Positions 1,599 through 10,700 of a DNA stretch of 64,000 bases are shown one piece after another. The notes below the pieces were generated by a model. It was not told the origin of the DNA. It saw only the letters and a program-made list of their open reading frames with translations, and ran no database searches. Both the position numbers and the translations under genes were made by a program. Numbering within the stretch: the first letter of the stretch is position 1; each line of letters opens with the position of its first letter. This stretch comes from a virus, in IMG/VR virus record IMGVR_UViG_3300032093_000017; one strand, given 5' to 3'.

Positions 1599-1627
1599 AT
1601 TATACCATAAGACCCAAAAAAAGTCAA
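1599..1627 (-). promoter_or_regulatory. sigma70-type promoter, leftward
   Basis: Minus strand TTGACT (1627-1622) - 17 bp - TATAAT (1604-1599) with extended -10 TGG. Confidence 0.75.
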
Positions 1628-1865
1628 GGGCATTACAGACACTCCTAGGGGTGGCACAAGACATATAGACAATGAAACTCCTGAGACTCACACATCTTAT
1701 GAGTCTTGGGAGTATTTTGCTAGTTACTCGTAAGACTCATAGGTCTCAAACCACTGCAGTAACTGGCACATCGTATCGTGAGTCTCACTGATTCTGCGAT
1801 AGACTTATAGGGTCGGGAGGGGAGGGAATATTATAAACTCCCATAACTGATAAGAAATACGCACC

Positions 1866-2042
1866 TGTGGAAAAATAGTTTTCCACAGGTTTCATTCATT
1901 TCCTATAGGGGAAAGTAATGATTTCCCACAGATAGTTTTCCACAAGTTTATGATGATTTGTAGTGTTTGCAAGGGTTTATAAGAATTGCCCTGTGGAAAA
2001 AGTCTTATAGTTTTCCACAGGTTCGTTATATCTTGTGGAAAA
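1866..2042. promoter_or_regulatory. cluster of cyanobacterial-type DnaA boxes (TTTTCCACA)
   Basis: Perfect 9-mers at 1866(-), 1879(+), 1936(+), 1992(-), 2011(+), 2034(-); one-mismatch copy at 1922. Confidence 0.7.
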
Positions 2043-2165
2043 CTATTCGTGTTAGAATCTCATTCGTCCTGAGAGTTCGTTATACATAAGAGTTCGTTAT
2101 AATCATTCGTTGTGCTTATAGTATTATAATATATTCGTCTTATAGTATAATAATATAATAGCAAC

Positions 2166-2411
2166 GTTATGTTTGAGACCCCCCATAAGGTTTGCTATTT
2201 CAATCAGACAGTGCTATACTATTCGTTGTACACAGTTTCTGACATAAACTGATGTCGTCCTCTGAGTATCATAAACTCTCGGAGGAGTTCGTTATGCAAC
2301 CCCCCATAAGGTTTGTTATTCTTATTGACCAAGACTACATAATTCGTGTTGCACAGTTCGTGTTATAAACTGATGTCCTCCTTTCGTTATATCTAACCCC
2401 CCATAAGGTTT
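2166..2411. repeat. degenerate ~121-bp tandem repeat with conserved core ACCCCCCATAAGGTTT
   Basis: 16-bp core at 2178, 2299, 2396; second block ATAAACTGATGTC at 2244 and 2365. Confidence 0.85.
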
Positions 2412-2690
2412 CGTATTAGAATTAAACAGTAATGAATATAAACTATTCGTGATTGTTCGTTTATTATAATTAAACAGCACTGTTTGACAGTTATATTTTG
2501 TGTTGTTGTATTCTTATACCTAACCGATGCCCCCTTATATAAAATCAATGGGTCCTTCAAGGCTACACCGAACCGAAAACGAGAGAGTAATTGTCTTTCA
2601 AATAAAAAAATTTTTCCAAAAAATTTTTCCAAAAAAGTTGAGGGCACAAGAACAAAAAATGATATATAAGTTTAGAATTTAATCAAAAAA

Positions 2691-2849
2691 ATGACAATGA
2701 GATTAGAAATTGATGATTATGAAAAGGATCTTTTAATTGATACAATTCAGCATAGATTAGACACTGATAAAATCTTAGTGATTAACAATAGTCTGAAAGA
2801 AGAACTTGAAGATCTTCTAAGGAAAGTGGAAGAAGATGAATACGTATAA
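2691..2849 (+). CDS. small hypothetical protein (52 aa)
   Basis: MTMRLEIDDYEKDLL...EDEYV; not in ORF track. Confidence 0.6.
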   Translation: MTMRLEIDDYEKDLLIDTIQHRLDTDKILVINNSLKEELEDLLRKVEEDEYV

Positions 2850-3006
2850 TATTTCAGTAAATGGAAATGAAATATTAAGTCAAGTGCCGCAGAATGATTT
2901 ACAGGAAAATCTGAAACTTATCAGAGGACTTGTATGGACATCTGGGGGAAATGATGGGGATATTACAGTATCTCTAAATAAGAATGAAAACCATTGCAAT
3001 GAATGA
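2836..3006 (+). CDS. small hypothetical protein (56 aa)
   Basis: MNTYNISVNGNEIL...; overlaps upstream stop; not in ORF track. Confidence 0.55.
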   Translation: MNTYNISVNGNEILSQVPQNDLQENLKLIRGLVWTSGGNDGDITVSLNKNENHCNE

Positions 3007-3022
3007 TTTGTGGTGGTAGAAT
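2994..3022 (+). promoter_or_regulatory. sigma70-type promoter
   Basis: TTGCAA-17-TAGAAT with extended -10 TG, upstream of ATG 3058. Confidence 0.6.
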
Positions 3023-3057
3023 ACTAAAGAACAGATTATTTTTCGCAATTATTTTTT

Positions 3058-3807
3058 ATGGCTAAAGGATTTACGGTAAAAGCAAAACTTCCGACAGGAC
3101 CTGTGGAAGGAGAGTTTAATTTAGAAGCAGCAAAAGAAATGATCCGAGGCAAATCAATTGTCTTTTGTTTGCCTGGACGAGGAGTATCTTATCTGTATCT
3201 GAAGAATTTTGTTCAATTATGTTTTGACCTTGTTCAGAACGGAGCAAGTATTCAGATTTCACAAGACTACAGTTCAATGGTGAACTTTGCACGATGCAAA
3301 TGTCTTGGAGCAAATGTTCTCAGAGGACCCAAGCAGATTCCTTGGGATGGAAAACTACAGTATGATTATCAACTCTGGATTGACAGTGATATTGTCTTTG
3401 ATACTGAGAAGTTCTATCGTCTTGTAGCAATGGACAAAGAGATTGCTGCTGGATGGTACTGCACTGAAGATGGTCACACCACATCGGTTGCCCATTGGTT
3501 ACAGGAAGATGATTTCAGAAGCAATGGTGGTGTGATGAACCACGAGACACTGGAGACCATTCAGAAACGTCGTAAACCATTTACAGTGGATTACACAGGT
3601 TTCGGATGGGTTTTGATTAAGAAAGGTGTATTTGAGAATCTTGAGTATCCTTGGTTTGCTCCGAAGATGCAGGTCTTTGAATCTGGTGAAGTTCAAGATA
3701 TGTGTGGAGAGGATGTTTCATTCTGTCTTGATGCAAAAGAGGCAGGATATGAGATCTGGTGCGATCCTCAAATTCGTGTTGGTCACGAAAAGACACGAAT
3801 CATCTGA
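3058..3807 (+). CDS. GT-A-fold glycosyltransferase-like protein, conserved in cyanomyoviruses
   Basis: LWIDSDIVF (DxD), GFGWVLIKKGVF, GEDVSFC and C-terminal VGH motifs. Confidence 0.7.
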   Translation: MAKGFTVKAKLPTGPVEGEFNLEAAKEMIRGKSIVFCLPGRGVSYLYLKNFVQLCFDLVQNGASIQISQDYSSMVNFARCKCLGANVLRGPKQIPWDGKLQYDYQLWIDSDIVFDTEKFYRLVAMDKEIAAGWYCTEDGHTTSVAHWLQEDDFRSNGGVMNHETLETIQKRRKPFTVDYTGFGWVLIKKGVFENLEYPWFAPKMQVFESGEVQDMCGEDVSFCLDAKEAGYEIWCDPQIRVGHEKTRII

Positions 3808-3855
3808 TAAGTGTCTAGAAGGTATTTCTTGACCTTCTTTGAAACGTTATGATAG

Positions 3856-3897
3856 AATGTCTCTATAAGGTTTGTATCGTCTTATAGAGACATTTTT
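3856..3897 (+). terminator. 14-bp stem hairpin followed by T-run, putative intrinsic terminator
   Basis: AATGTCTCTATAAG (3856-3869) / CTTATAGAGACATT (3881-3894), with a T-run at 3893-3897. Confidence 0.5.
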
Positions 3898-3956
3898 ATT
3901 GGCTTGAGAGACTTTATAAAAACCCCCTTATAAAAACCGTTAGATGGAGAACTAAA

Positions 3957-4094
3957 ATGGCACAAAAGAGTCGGAAGGATATGAAGATTGAGAGTATTCC
4001 GAAGAATACTCGACAAGGTGAAGGTAGAAATACTAAATATGCTGCTACGAGTCGCAATGGGGCACGTAAGAAGTACCGAGGTCAAGGACGGTAA
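3957..4094 (+). CDS. small basic protein (45 aa) ending KKYRGQGR
   Basis: GGAG SD upstream, MAQKSRKDMK...RKKYRGQGR; missed by ORF track. Confidence 0.75.
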   Translation: MAQKSRKDMKIESIPKNTRQGEGRNTKYAATSRNGARKKYRGQGR

Positions 4095-4096
4095 AT

Positions 4097-4735
4097 ATGG
4101 CTTATTTAAACCATAGTCTTCCAGATTGGTCCTGTTATATTCGTAATGAATTTCTTTTTAATCACAAGAAAGGTCACGGTGAAGTAACTAAATGTGATGT
4201 TCATTGTGTTGCTAGTATTGAAAAAAGAGTTCCTTTATTTGAGGCATTCCTTGAGAATGGCGTGAATTGGACTCGTAGACCTCTTCACGCATTTTGTTGG
4301 AAACCAGATGCAGAAATAGAACCTTTAGAGGATCTTATGTACTGGGACTGCTTTTCACCGTATGTTGATGTTCAAAAACGTGCCCGTCTTGCTGGATTGC
4401 AAGCAGAATTGATTCGTCCTGATGGAAAAAAAGTGATTGGGAGATATATGTTTACCCTTGATTGGTCATGGGAAAATAAAGGAGTCACTGATCTTAATTT
4501 TTCAGAGACTCCTGAACATAAATGTGCTCATTTATTCAAGGTGGAAACTGGAAATTACTATGCATATCCAAACAATCGCATTATTTGGTATGATAATGCC
4601 TGGACTTTCAATAGAATTGACAAAAATCCAGGATATGAAATTGATTTGACAGTATATTCGGTTGAAAATAAAAGAAAAATCGAAACATCTGATCATTACA
4701 TGTACGAAATTACAAATTTAAATCAAAATAAATAA
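4097..4735 (+). CDS. conserved phage hypothetical protein
   Basis: 212-aa ORF with WDCFS, YMFTLDW, EHKCAH, YPNNRI motifs that I recognise from aquatic phages. Confidence 0.8.
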   Translation: MAYLNHSLPDWSCYIRNEFLFNHKKGHGEVTKCDVHCVASIEKRVPLFEAFLENGVNWTRRPLHAFCWKPDAEIEPLEDLMYWDCFSPYVDVQKRARLAGLQAELIRPDGKKVIGRYMFTLDWSWENKGVTDLNFSETPEHKCAHLFKVETGNYYAYPNNRIIWYDNAWTFNRIDKNPGYEIDLTVYSVENKRKIETSDHYMYEITNLNQNK

Positions 4736-4756
4736 ATTTTTACTAAAGATATTGAG

Positions 4757-5098
4757 TTGAAACAGTTTTCGATGGGCAATCACCTTCTTTTGGAGGTTTA
4801 TGATATAGAACACAATCTTCTGAATGATGGTATTTCTCTTCAGGGGGTGATGGAACGTGGAATTGAACGTGCTGGAATGACTATTTTAAATATTTTTCAG
4901 CACTGTTTCTATCCTCAAGGAGTTACGATTGTAATTGCTCTTTCGGAAAGTCATGTTTCGTGTCATACATGGCCGGAAAGAGGTTGTATTGCCATAGATG
5001 TATATACTTGTGGTGAAGGAAATCCAAAATTAGTTGCACTAGAATTGTTGAAGTATTTTAATTCGGATAATTATAAACTTCGTCAGTTGGATCGTTAA
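4757..5098 (+). CDS. speD: S-adenosylmethionine decarboxylase proenzyme (start may be ATG 4772)
   Basis: HxFxPQGVT...LSESHVSCHTWPE...DVYTCG; E-S autocleavage site. Confidence 0.9.
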   Translation: MKQFSMGNHLLLEVYDIEHNLLNDGISLQGVMERGIERAGMTILNIFQHCFYPQGVTIVIALSESHVSCHTWPERGCIAIDVYTCGEGNPKLVALELLKYFNSDNYKLRQLDR

Positions 5099-5159
5099 AT
5101 AATAATAGAGATAGCAACCTCTTTAAAAGTTCCGGTTTTACTAAAAACAGGAGTTGCAA

Positions 5160-5402
5160 ATGTCTTTTTATCAAATTGATAGAAATAAAGATTATATGAG
5201 AGAAATGTGGGGAACTACAAGTCTCATTACTGATTACAATCAACAAAAAAATACAAAAAAAGTACTTCAGGAGATTATGCACGATCATGCACCAAAGCAT
5301 GATTTTAAAAAACAAACTGAATTACACGAAAAGATCAGAAATGATGAAGATTATGATGATTGGAATTATGGTACAGAACCAGTCTATGGAAAAATTGTCT
5401 GA
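5160..5402 (+). CDS. conserved hypothetical protein
   Basis: AGGAG SD then ATG 5160 within track ORF 5154..5402. Confidence 0.75.
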   Translation: MSFYQIDRNKDYMREMWGTTSLITDYNQQKNTKKVLQEIMHDHAPKHDFKKQTELHEKIRNDEDYDDWNYGTEPVYGKIV

Positions 5403-5439
5403 AAAGTCTTATAGATATATAAAAGACAATTAATCTTAG

Positions 5440-5841
5440 ATGCCAATTAGCATTTCAAGATCTTTTAAAGACATTAGTTTGTCTTTTTCACGTCATCCTG
5501 TTACAAATGATATTTTAATTTTAAAAAATGAGGATGCAATTAAAAGATCTGTTCTCAATTTAGTTCAAACTCAAATTAGTGAGAGGTTCTTCAATAACTT
5601 ATTGGGAACCTCTGTGAATTCTTCTTTGTTTGAACTTGCAACACAAGAAATAGAGATTATTTTAAAAAGAGAAATTGAAACTGTATTAAATAATTTTGAA
5701 CCAAGAATTAGATTAAATAATATAGAGGTAGAAGTAATTGATGATTATAATGAATTGACCGTTAAAATTGTATATGACATTGTTGGACTACCATTACCAC
5801 TACAGAATATAGAGTTTATTTTACAACCAACTAGAATATAA
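5440..5841 (+). CDS. gp25: baseplate wedge subunit gp25
   Basis: FKDISLSF..HPVT, ERFFN, FEPRI motifs; precedes gp6. Confidence 0.9.
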   Translation: MPISISRSFKDISLSFSRHPVTNDILILKNEDAIKRSVLNLVQTQISERFFNNLLGTSVNSSLFELATQEIEIILKREIETVLNNFEPRIRLNNIEVEVIDDYNELTVKIVYDIVGLPLPLQNIEFILQPTRI

Positions 5842-7733
5842 TGTCCTTCAATAACTTTACAAACTTAGATTTTAATGATTTAAGAACTCAAATTAAGAGT
5901 TATTTGAGAGCAAATGCAAATTTTACAGATTTTGATTTTGAAGGATCTAATTTTTCTGTTTTAATTGATATTTTAGCATATAATTCTTACATTACTGCAT
6001 TTAACACCAATATGGTGGTGAATGAATCCTTTATTGATAGTGCAACTCTTCGGGAGAATGTTGTTTCTCTTGCACGTAATATCGGATATGTACCAAGATC
6101 AAAAAGTGCATCAAAGGGAAAAATAAGTTTTTCCGTAAGCACACCTAGAGATTCTAGTGGTAATTTAATTTCAAAAACAGTTACTTTAAAGGCAGGAGTA
6201 GTTGCCTTAGGTGCTGTGGAGGGGGGAAATTATATTTTTTCAATTCCAGAAGATAAAACAGTTGTTGTTGGAAATGATGGATTTGCAAATTTCACAGATG
6301 TTGAAATTTATGAAGGAACATTTTTAACTAAATCATTTACAATTGACGATTCGCAACCAAATCAAAGATTTTTAATTCCAAATGCAAGTGTGGATACATC
6401 TACACTTCGTGTGAAAGTTACAAATGTTATAAATGAAAAATATGAGTTATATAATAATATTTTTAAAGTAGACAAAACTTCAAAATTATTTTTAATACAA
6501 GAAGTTAGTGATGAGAAATATGAAATTGTATTTGGTGATAATATTTTAGGAAAAAGACCAATTAGTGGAAGTACCGTTCTTGTTTCCTATATTGTAACAA
6601 ATGGAAAGGAAGGTGATGGTTGCTTTAACTTTACATTTTCAGGAATTTTAGTTGATAATAATCAAACAGCAATCACAAGTGGAATTTCTTTAATTACCAC
6701 AACTCAAGTATCAGAAAATGGTGACGATATTGAGTCTATTGATTCAATTAAATATCTTGGACCAAGAGTCTATGCCTCCCAGTATCGTGCAGTTACTGCA
6801 AATGACTATAAAGGATTAATCCCATCTATTTTTCCAAATGTAGATACTGTTACTGCTTATGGTGGAGAAGAACTAGACCCACCAGAATATGGAAAAGTTT
6901 ACATTTCAATAAAACCAAGAAATGGTAAATTTTTATCTCAAATCTCAAAAAATGAGATTAAAAAGCAACTAAAGCAATATTCAATTGCAGGAATACAACC
7001 AGAGATTATTGATTTGAAATATTTGTATGTTGAATTGGAATCCTCTGTATATTATGACAAAAGTTCAACTTCAAGTGTTACTGATTTACAATCTAGAGTT
7101 ATTAATTCATTAAAGAGTTATGCAAAATCAACAGAATTGAACAGTTTTGGTGGAAGATTTAAGTATAGTAAAGTTTCAACGTTAATTGATAGCACAAGCA
7201 CTGCAGTCACTTCAAATATCACAAAAGTAAAAATAAGAAGAGATTTACAACCAGCACTCAATACTCTTGCAAATTATGAACTTTGTTTTGGAAATCAATT
7301 TCATATTCAAAAGTTAATTGATGGGAAAGGATATAACATAAAATCTACAGGATTTACTGTCAAAAATATAGCAGATAAATTATATTTAAGTGATACACCA
7401 AGGACAGATGAAGTTGGAACTATCTTTTTCTTTAGACTTGTGAATGGAGTTCCATTCATTGTAGTAAATAATGCAGGAGAAGTTAATTACAAAAAAGGAG
7501 AAATATTATTAAATCCAGTGATTATAACTTCTTCGGATAATTCTTCGGGAATACAAATTCAAGCAATTCCGGAATCAAATGATATCATTTCTTTGAAAGA
7601 TATATACTTAGAGATGGATACTACTACACTTAAAGTAACTATGCTAGAGGATGTGATAACTTCTGGAGAAAATACCTCTGCAACAGAATATCCAGTCACA
7701 TCTAGTTACAACAACGGAAATTATATAAGATAA
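5841..7733 (+). CDS. gp6: baseplate wedge subunit gp6
   Basis: DFDFEGSNFSVLIDILAYN, RENVVSLARNIGY, RAVTANDY motifs. Confidence 0.92.
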   Translation: MSFNNFTNLDFNDLRTQIKSYLRANANFTDFDFEGSNFSVLIDILAYNSYITAFNTNMVVNESFIDSATLRENVVSLARNIGYVPRSKSASKGKISFSVSTPRDSSGNLISKTVTLKAGVVALGAVEGGNYIFSIPEDKTVVVGNDGFANFTDVEIYEGTFLTKSFTIDDSQPNQRFLIPNASVDTSTLRVKVTNVINEKYELYNNIFKVDKTSKLFLIQEVSDEKYEIVFGDNILGKRPISGSTVLVSYIVTNGKEGDGCFNFTFSGILVDNNQTAITSGISLITTTQVSENGDDIESIDSIKYLGPRVYASQYRAVTANDYKGLIPSIFPNVDTVTAYGGEELDPPEYGKVYISIKPRNGKFLSQISKNEIKKQLKQYSIAGIQPEIIDLKYLYVELESSVYYDKSSTSSVTDLQSRVINSLKSYAKSTELNSFGGRFKYSKVSTLIDSTSTAVTSNITKVKIRRDLQPALNTLANYELCFGNQFHIQKLIDGKGYNIKSTGFTVKNIADKLYLSDTPRTDEVGTIFFFRLVNGVPFIVVNNAGEVNYKKGEILLNPVIITSSDNSSGIQIQAIPESNDIISLKDIYLEMDTTTLKVTMLEDVITSGENTSATEYPVTSSYNNGNYIR

Positions 7734-7734
7734 A

Positions 7735-10700
7735 ATGTCAGAAGTTAAAAGAGTAAAAATCCAATCTTTTATTGAATCACAAATTCCAGAATTTTTAAAT
7801 TCTGAATCTCCTCTGTTCAAAGAATTTTTAGAGCAATATTATATTTCACAGGAACATCAGACTGGTGTTACTGATTTAACAGTTAATTTACAAAATTATA
7901 AAAGCATTGATAATTTTAATAACGAAACATTTTACAGCACAGTTGGAATTTGTACTCTCACTTCTGATGTTGTGTCTTTTGATGATACGATTCTCGTCAA
8001 TCATACAATTGGATTTCCCCAAAAATATGGTTTATTGAAAATTGATAATGAAATTATTACATACACGGGAATTACAACAAATTCTTTTACTGGTTGTATT
8101 CGTGGTTTTTGTGGATTAGATAAAGATAATACAAATGATTTATTTAAATTTTCTTCAACAGATACTTCAGACCATACAAAAAATTCACAGGTAATTAATT
8201 TAAATATTTTATTTTTTCAGGAATTATTTAAAAAATTCAAAACACAATTTTTACCTGGATTTGAAGATAGACAATTTGCAACTGGAATTAATTTACAAAC
8301 AATATTATCAAGAGCAAAGGATTTTTATACTACAAAAGGAACTGATACTTCATTTAAAATTCTTTTTAGTGTTCTTTTTAATGAGTCAATATCTGTCATT
8401 AAACCACAAGACTATTTAATTTCTCCATCATCAAATGATTATTTGATAACTAAAAATATTTTAGTTGAACAAATAATTAGAGATTCCACATTTAAAGTTT
8501 CGGATTCTACTTTAAGAAAAGAATTAAAAGGAAAAACAATATTTCAATCAACTTTAGATAATAAAACAGCAAGTGCATCAATTTATAATGTTGAATATAG
8601 ACCAATAAATTCTGGAGATTTTATATACAATTCGGTTGGATTTGACGAAACTGCACAAAAAAATTATATCACCAAGGATTTTTATGAAATTTCTTTAGAT
8701 CGTACATCATTTATATTAAACTTTGAATCTACTAAGAAAACAAAAGTTTTAGAAAATACATTCAAAAATTCAACTTCTATTTTAGTTGATTCTACAATTG
8801 GATTTAAAAAATCTGGAACTTTATTGATTAAACCAAAAAATCTTTCAAATCCAATTGTTTTAACATACACCGATAAAACAATTAATGAATTTTTAAATGT
8901 AAGTGGTCTAACAATTGATTTAGATTATGGTGCAGAAATAATTGAAGAAAATTTCTTATACACATATTTGGATGACGGATCAAAAATTGAATTCAGATTG
9001 ATTAACATTATTAATGATATTGATTATAAAGAAACATCAAATTTAAGAGTAAATGATAAAATACAACTATTTTCATTTGGTATTGATTTAAATGACCGAA
9101 TTGAATTCAATCAATGGATTTATAATGTACCAACAACGCATCTCATAAAATCAGTAGATACAGGTAGAATATATTTGTATGAAAACATTAATTTGTCTAT
9201 TGGAGACCAAGTAGTATTATCTAATCCAGATTTAGTAGATGTACAAAATGTTACAGTAAGTATTGAAGGATTTGGTTTTAATGCATTTGGACATTTTATT
9301 GATACAAAAGGTCCAAATGCAAGCACATTCAAAAAAACACATTTAACAAAAATCATTAATAAAGTTTCTAGTGATCAAAATTATTTTCCAAATGTTTCTA
9401 TTTTTCCATCTTCAATTCAGAATACCTACATTGATTATAATAGTGAAAATTTTTATGTTGCTTCTTCTGGACTCCCCAATTATGAAATTTATGCAACCGA
9501 TAGAAAAACATTTGTTTCTGCAAATGTAAGTACGGGTTCAACTACAATTTTAAATTGTTCTAATCACAATTTATTTACTGGTGAAAAAATATATTATATT
9601 CAAAAATCTGGAAATGTTGGAATTAGAACTTCTGCATATTTTGTAACAAAAGTAAATGACAATCAAGTAAAATTGTCATATAGTAATTCTGATTTATTCT
9701 CAAAAACTTATGTCCCAATAAAAAATAATGTTGATGGTGATTATTTTGTTAAATTTGATTTTCAAAATAAATCATTAGGCAATCAAAAATTATTTAAAAA
9801 ATTTAATTTAGTTAAAAAATTAAATAAATTTTTTACAGATAATGATAAAAGTACTATAGATAAAGCCACTGGGATTTTAATCAATGGTGTTGAAATATTT
9901 TCACCGACTCTTTATGATGAAAATATTTACTACGGAAAAATTAATTCGGTCATTGTTGAGAGTTCAGGAAAGGATTATGATGTTATTAATTTTTCTGGTT
10001 TAGAAGTTGATGATATTTATGGCACTGGTGCATCAGTAGAGGCAAATCTATCTGGAAGTCTGGATAAAGTAATATTATTAAATCCTGGAATTGGATATCC
10101 AAGAAAACCAAAAATTACTTTAGTTGGAGGAAATGGATCAGGAGCAGTTTTAGAGTCAAACTTAGTAAAAACTAAAATCGTATCAAAATTTAACCCAAGT
10201 TCCGCCATCAGCATTGGATCAAGCACAATACAGTTTTTGACTAATCATAATTTTGATGACGGAGAAGAAGTATCTTATATTAATGATTCTAATGGAAATG
10301 TATCACCATTAATAAACAATTCAAATTATTTCGTAGGTATAGTAAGTGCAACACAACTGAAATTATATAAAACTAAGGAAAATGCATTAGGAAAAAATAG
10401 TCCTATTACTTTCACTGGGATTGGTTCAGGAATACACTCTTTAAAAACCTTAAATTCAAAAAATACAATCACAAAAATTTATGTAAAAGAAAAAGGAAAA
10501 AATTATTCAAATAGATCGGTCAAAATACCAAGTGATTTATCATCAAATAACCAAAATAATGGAATAAACACATTTGATGATTATATTTTTGCAAAAGAAC
10601 ACAATTTTAAAAATGAAGATGTAGTAATATACTCCACAAGTGGCACTTCAATATCTGGATTATCAACTCAAACAAATTATTATGTTACTGTAATTGATAG

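Follow-up and report, generated by a model that had tools for sequence, protein, structure and literature searches.

The 64-kb stretch of viral DNA analysed here (the window) carries an array of DnaA boxes that is real, conserved and accessory. It is best explained, as far as its sequence allows, as an optional, swappable set of helically phased perfect sites for host DnaA that would copy the loading side of a host oriC, with its phased boxes and bend-like spacer, and omit the unwinding module. Six exact copies of TTTTCCACA lie at 1866(-), 1879(+), 1936(+), 1992(-), 2011(+) and 2034(-), with an exact span of 1866-2042, and the near-box TTTCCCACA lies among them at 1922(+), all as reported in a preliminary description of this DNA. 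No exact copy was found elsewhere in the window, and the total of six is only a mild excess over the 2.35 ± 1.46 copies of shuffled sequences. The clustering, however, is not due to chance: 0.006 copies are expected per 180 bp (P ~1e-14, window-corrected), in line with the earlier estimate of far less than one. The box at 1922 is perfect in relatives, and the variant C1925T, present in a lake population, makes it perfect there as well.

The two inverted pairs and the four extended copies, with ATAG directly 5' of the box, were likewise recovered as first described. One pair is formed by 1866(-) and 1879(+), which stand back to back (1866-1887) around a 4-bp spacer. Sequence matching places the near-perfect box at 1922 and the perfect box at 1936 together on the plus strand (1922-1944), and the group formed by 1992(-), 2011(+) and 2034(-) (1992-2042) contains the other pair, whose 10-bp back-to-back spacer is the same as that of a host oriC pair. 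The three minus-strand boxes are separated by 126, 42 and 168 bp, which correspond to 12, 4 and 16 helical turns.

The source virus is a freshwater T4-like cyanophage. The protein encoded at 3058-3807 matches almost solely T4-like phages of Synechococcus and Prochlorococcus (Kyanoviridae), the window carries genes for a terminase, a helicase, SbcC/SbcD-like nucleases and a clamp loader, and the phage DNA is present in freshwater and river sequencing runs. T4-like cyanophages abound in lakes and oceans. Among the 80 closest IMG/VR relatives, ten have 2-8 boxes upstream of the marker gene, and around this gene the relatives hold 57 exact boxes in 259 kb upstream versus 3 in 458 kb downstream. 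A collection-wide scan for the back-to-back pair found matches mainly at this same locus, at which 56 de-duplicated phage blocks carry 3-12 boxes each. The array is thus conserved in the syntenic region upstream of the glycosyltransferase/gp25 block, where the preliminary description had suggested looking for it. Cultured phages exist both with boxes at this locus (S-CREM1, ACG-2014d, Syn30 and S-SSM5, with 2-5 each and two in S-SSM5) and without them (P-SSM2, S-SSM7, S-SRM01 and Sf-FS3, in which no box cluster was found anywhere in the genome). Absence from relatives had been named as evidence that would count against a role in DnaA binding; the boxes are kept in the 56 blocks but missing from these four cultured phages and from some near-identical alleles. 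Copy number ranges from 0 to 12 among relatives and grows in steps of 21-22 bp, or two turns, and the boxes lie anywhere between 60 and 640 bp from the promoter, to one side of it or the other. A tree of the marker gene, poorly resolved and with 19 rows weighted to box-bearing loci, implies at least three gains or losses of boxes.

The array sits in a 1.3-kb non-coding block, with small early-type genes to the left (1-1391) and a glycosyltransferase-gp25-gp6 run to the right. From left to right, the block consists of an AT-rich tract, a leftward sigma70 promoter, a probable rightward early promoter, the boxes, TTCGT repeats and a terminal element. The AT-rich tract (1401-1500, 17% GC) is by its composition a candidate for the unwinding element that a T4-type R-loop origin would need; its meltability is in the top 0.2% of the window, not the highest, and in the top 0.2-21% across five complete genomes. 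The predicted leftward promoter (1599-1627, minus strand) is near-consensus, with 11/12 matches and an extended -10, is kept in relatives and points into this tract. The rightward early promoter (1752-1812, plus strand) is suggested by a TGGCACA motif at 1764, a -10 at 1800-1805 and the same spacing as in the early promoters of relatives, and it would probably read into the boxes; we take its motif to be that of Syn9. The facing boxes 1936(+) and 1992(-) are separated by a spacer (1945-1991, plus strand) of fixed length, 47 bp or 56 bp start to start, which contains a conserved element with an IHF-like core at 1961-1979. The flanking promoters, the sharing of this spacer element with oriC and the option that the array acts in cis all go beyond the preliminary description.

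To the right of the boxes, fifteen TTCGT repeats (2022-2460, plus strand; background 0.64 per kb) are accompanied by three units about 121 bp apart that resemble decayed, gene-less early promoters. The block ends with a non-coding element with A/T tracts (2525-2640, plus strand), related forms of which close the block in most cyanomyophages inspected and occur once per genome in five complete ones, in either case with or without boxes; this element is a candidate packaging, termination or origin signal. A 33-bp tandem duplication at 1519-1584 is single-copy in other strains. Contigs assembled from RNA runs span 201-1629 and 1715-1863, the second from a box-less allele, and carry no strand, ends or level. 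In the relatives L177 (3003-4612) and L127 (7737-8275), back-to-back pairs recur before several early promoters.

It is very probable that the ligand of the phage boxes is host DnaA. The comparison was made with 66 real cyanobacterial oriC regions, mostly picocyanobacterial. The flanks of the phage boxes match those of host oriC boxes (+1 G in 74% versus 77%, -1 G/T), and several spacings are common to both, namely 11-12, 21-22, 43 and 54 for boxes on the same strand and 18-19 back to back. Same-strand distances in the phages are phased at 10.5 bp (R=0.68, from counts that are not phylogenetically independent). The start-to-start spacing of 13, on the other hand, occurs 37 times in phage blocks versus 0 in host oriC. 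The 56-bp facing interval is found in 14 relatives, whose spacers are akin to each other in sequence, and 11 of the 14 contain the IHF-like core versus 1.3 in shuffled sequences. In 20 of the 66 regions, versus 5.4 expected, a profile of these spacers matches best within the spacer that precedes the unwinding module of the host oriC; the reciprocal test with a host spacer profile was weak in the phage blocks (2-7/14, and not the top match in the window), so the homology of the spacers rests mainly on one direction. Among viral loci with a TTTT-type pair, 73/117 have the flanking genes of this block, and among those with the TTAT type 0/119 do. The proposal that a T4-like phage carries cyanobacterial-type DnaA boxes is upheld, with host DnaA as the most likely ligand.

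No DnaA domain IV was found encoded in five box-bearing phages. Five of five picocyanobacteria encode a DnaA whose recognition helix is that of filamentous species, and domain IV of Cyanothece DnaA binds paired TTTTCCACA and not clearly one lone box (PMC4674748). S. elongatus depends on DnaA and oriC for its replication (PMC7198777). In this mostly picocyanobacterial set, 47 of the 66 oriC regions have no perfect box, and three freshwater host genomes have 5-7 perfect boxes each per 3.1 Mb and 14-18 matches to the broad consensus. The phage array thus holds as many perfect boxes in 177 bp as a whole freshwater host chromosome. From the similarity of the proteins only, we infer that picocyanobacterial DnaA would bind the perfect word in preference to its own, degenerate boxes. 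The oriC regions of freshwater Cyanobium, Vulcanococcus and Synechococcus (L403-L522) have the usual cyanobacterial spacing and trios, and their boxes are strongly degenerate. A search with speD did not find picocyanobacteria.

The preliminary description had offered, as one of its two readings, that host DnaA opens an oriC-like origin at this site, and this claim is not supported. Host origins end with tandem boxes, a short GC spacer and DnaA-trios, which DnaA needs for unwinding (PMC8287927). A helically phased cluster of cognate boxes, as in an oriC, is present in the phage, the spacings and the spacer element are like those of oriC, and there is one array copy per genome. However, trios are clear in host oriC and none of the 56 phage blocks reaches the host 5% score, the best score in the window being -9.7 versus a host median of 19.5; a lenient trio test of the phage blocks gave shuffle level only, and the complete module of tandem boxes, GC spacer and trios was not found in them. 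It is true that trios cannot be recognised in 15% of bacterial origins (PMC8287927). Nevertheless, in the source phage no AT-rich tract adjoins the boxes, the nearest being about 370 bp off, and GC skew (raw, detrended or at third positions) showed no switch and no consistent extremum at the block in five complete genomes, where one-strand coding dominates the skew and leaves it uninformative. Since there are no trios, and the boxes are replaced in near-identical relatives, we do not regard the array as an oriC, and a self-sufficient origin opened by host DnaA is the least probable of the readings considered here, and a very improbable one. Alleles with 0-3 boxes and the absence of the array from the four cultured phages argue, indirectly, that it is not required for replication.

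The strongest evidence that the array is accessory comes from natural alleles. Alignment of public contigs to the region revealed a junction at 1863, which was followed up and led to an allelic series. The exchangeable slot (1847-2062) holds in relatives an HNH endonuclease gene, or a remnant of 53-71 aa, behind a late-promoter hairpin, with 0-3 boxes left. L602, L604 and L609 are 98.5-99% identical to the window right of 2019 (L604 has 98.8% over 2019-8301 and 95-99% over 555-1846), and in them the stretch 1847-2018, which includes five exact boxes and the spacer, is swapped for a 53-aa ORF, leaving two boxes. They provide the clean comparison because the box-less G013 is near-identical on the left only, its structural arm averaging about 75%. 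The nearest record, G001, lacks coverage of this block. In L580-L582, L585 and L587 the left arm is more than 99% identical and the block has zero boxes, with one stray copy in the 88-kb contig of L585. Alleles of the L579 type have a longer form, an HNH endonuclease that shares its C-terminal domain with the short ORF. The short ORF is preceded by a hairpin whose loop carries a T4 late-promoter motif, an arrangement by which T4 homing endonucleases are usually controlled (PMC2988022). It seems that a homing element overwrote the array and that such phages persist, which argues that the array is accessory. Near-identical natural alleles with 0, 2 or 6-7 boxes thus form a comparison set. As to the cassette itself, L584 (207-614), L585 (3134-3298) and L597-L609 have a free-standing HNH endonuclease whose C-terminal domain is 54 aa long, in a decay series of 135, 71 and 53-54 aa in the box slot, and the 54-aa domain outlasts the loss of the nuclease; the remnant protein had no match in Pfam, PHROG or Atlas. 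The start of the HNH cassette (L585, 3047-3070) resembles the oriC spacer element, which may be retained even where the boxes are lost.

The reading that we tentatively place first, and which the preliminary description had given as its other option, is that the array serves as an accessory sink for host DnaA. Paired boxes would, with good reason, be expected to be bound cooperatively by host DnaA; the phage sites would then outcompete the degenerate boxes of the host oriC and multiply as the genome is copied, so that DnaA would be drawn into complexes unable to unwind. More speculatively, host initiation might drop, sparing nucleotides for the phage replisome. If this were true, a mechanism of host takeover would reside in DNA alone, where gene annotation does not see it. 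A sink would suit the free variation in box number and promoter distance, the natural losses and the blocks without trios, and the similar TTAT arrays of unrelated phages would also favour a sink over an origin. On the other hand, one incoming genome brings just 6-7 sites, DnaA bound to them might be dislodged when the rightward promoter is transcribed, and the box geometry is not that of datA. T4-like cyanophages degrade host DNA anyway, which makes a sink worth less. The constant association with the same promoter and AT-rich block suggests a local job too, as do the repeated pairs of L177 and L127, which precede several early promoters.

Such a local job is the main rival, close behind the sink and followed in order by a phage protein, an RNA or neutral role and the true oriC. 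In this reading, which we consider possible, host DnaA bound at the boxes would tune the divergent promoters, and the transcript running leftward across the AT-rich tract would extend this control to an R-loop origin of the T4 type. Early phage transcription or replication would then be tied to the replication state of the host, in the way known for DnaA at lambda pR/pO. The boxes are constantly found with the leftward promoter and the AT-rich tract, often on both sides, and in L165 and L167 they begin about 10 bp past the rightward -10. T4 oriF and oriG also consist of a promoter and an unwinding element (PMC3016281), and lambda has DnaA sites downstream of pO (PMC3985674). However, the distance, side and orientation of the boxes relative to the promoter are all variable, near-identical phages keep the promoter block with 0-3 boxes, the AT-rich tract is unexceptional genome-wide, and the block shows no skew signal. 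The sink and the control of neighbouring promoters are not mutually exclusive. It is unlikely that a phage-encoded protein has converged on the same 9-mer, as an operator or iteron. The geometries absent from host oriC (back-to-back 13; facing 13, 23, 56 and 79), an A-rich 5' flank stronger than in hosts and the many early proteins that belong to no known family would fit such a protein, but against it stand the exact match to the host consensus, the flanks and phasing that go with it, the oriC spacer element, the missing homologue of DnaA domain IV in five phages, and the variable spacers with about 40% of boxes unpaired, which do not resemble a dimer operator. Even less probable is that the pairs are RNA hairpins (terminators) or by-products of recombination in a repeat-rich region. 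Although 1863-1890 folds as a 12-bp hairpin and the commonest spacer is of 4 bases, complementarity beyond the boxes is no greater than in shuffled pairs, U-tracts follow 5-17% of pairs only, the 9-mer is invariant while the spacers drift, and the phasing of direct repeats requires a DNA-binding protein. A terminator or hairpin role of the pairs was rejected for lack of covariation and for the few U-tracts; the sole Rfam match was a sub-threshold His-leader produced by the inverted pair.

Comparison with known systems places the array between several of them. With the cyanobacterial oriC it shares the 9-mer, its flanks, the phasing at 11, 21-22, 43 and 54 bp, the back-to-back pair of 18-19 bp and a related spacer element (PMC8287927, PMC4674748). 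Unlike that oriC, it lacks 9-bp tandem boxes, a GC spacer and trios, has the box that follows its spacer in reverse orientation, appears dispensable and is carried by a lytic phage with T4-type replication genes. Like E. coli datA and the box clusters of B. subtilis and Streptomyces (PMC5742627), it is non-coding and not an origin and has a candidate bend-like site between boxes, and as with datA its effect would rise with copy number. The essential boxes of datA, however, share one orientation on the two sides of a true IHF site (PMC5742627), whereas 1936(+) and 1992(-) face each other, so strict membership of the datA class is not supported; moreover, the phage array is viral and would be aimed at the host. 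The three-box core pattern of DARS (DnaA-reactivating sequence), in which box I is opposite to II and III, is matched by 1866(-), 1879(+) and 1922(+) in orientation, the one property compared. The lambda pR/pO region is also a non-coding phage control region with DnaA boxes near promoters (PMC3985674); there, however, the sites are only consensus-like and belong to a mapped origin, whose phage initiator recruits its helicase from the host, whereas the cyanophage boxes are perfect and variable in position and number, and no initiator was seen. With the T4 R-loop origins oriF and oriG and the iterons of oriE (PMC3016281) the block shares a predicted promoter into an AT-rich tract and short repeats nearby, although DnaA is not mentioned in that review and the cyanophage R-loop origin is only a candidate from sequence. 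As a defining feature of oriC and one of datA are missing, we assign the array to neither; by analogy, its working would best be compared with that of a datA-type sink or of a DnaA input of the lambda kind, assembled from components of oriC.

A conserved module predicted to bind DnaA, in a lineage assumed to ignore it, would offer a handle on how phage replication starts and how the host is shut down. A literature search for DnaA boxes in T4-like phages or cyanophages, covering mostly open-access papers, yielded nothing beyond a prediction by Ori-Finder for phage G; no paper on how T4-like cyanophages start replication or halt that of the host was found in this search, from which subscription journals were largely absent. 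DnaA-box arrays may be a wider phage trait. We consider it doubtful, though worth stating, that they represent a DNA-only decoy against the host initiator in lytic phages with their own replication proteins, made of phased perfect boxes without trios that would outcompete the degenerate host oriC and perhaps drive DnaA-ATP hydrolysis; the TTTT form of cyanomyophages and the TTAT form of unrelated phages would then have separate evolutionary origins. Within L611-L728, 47 unrelated viral loci have at least four TTATCCACA boxes, up to 23, and 44 of the 47 are without trios; examples are L645 (12862-13347), L706 (6653-7202), L625 (1936-2127) and L630 (1599-1770). L625 encodes its own primase-helicase and DNA polymerase, and L630 a terminase and a portal protein. 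A few of the loci in this set, such as L618, resemble a true bacterial oriC.
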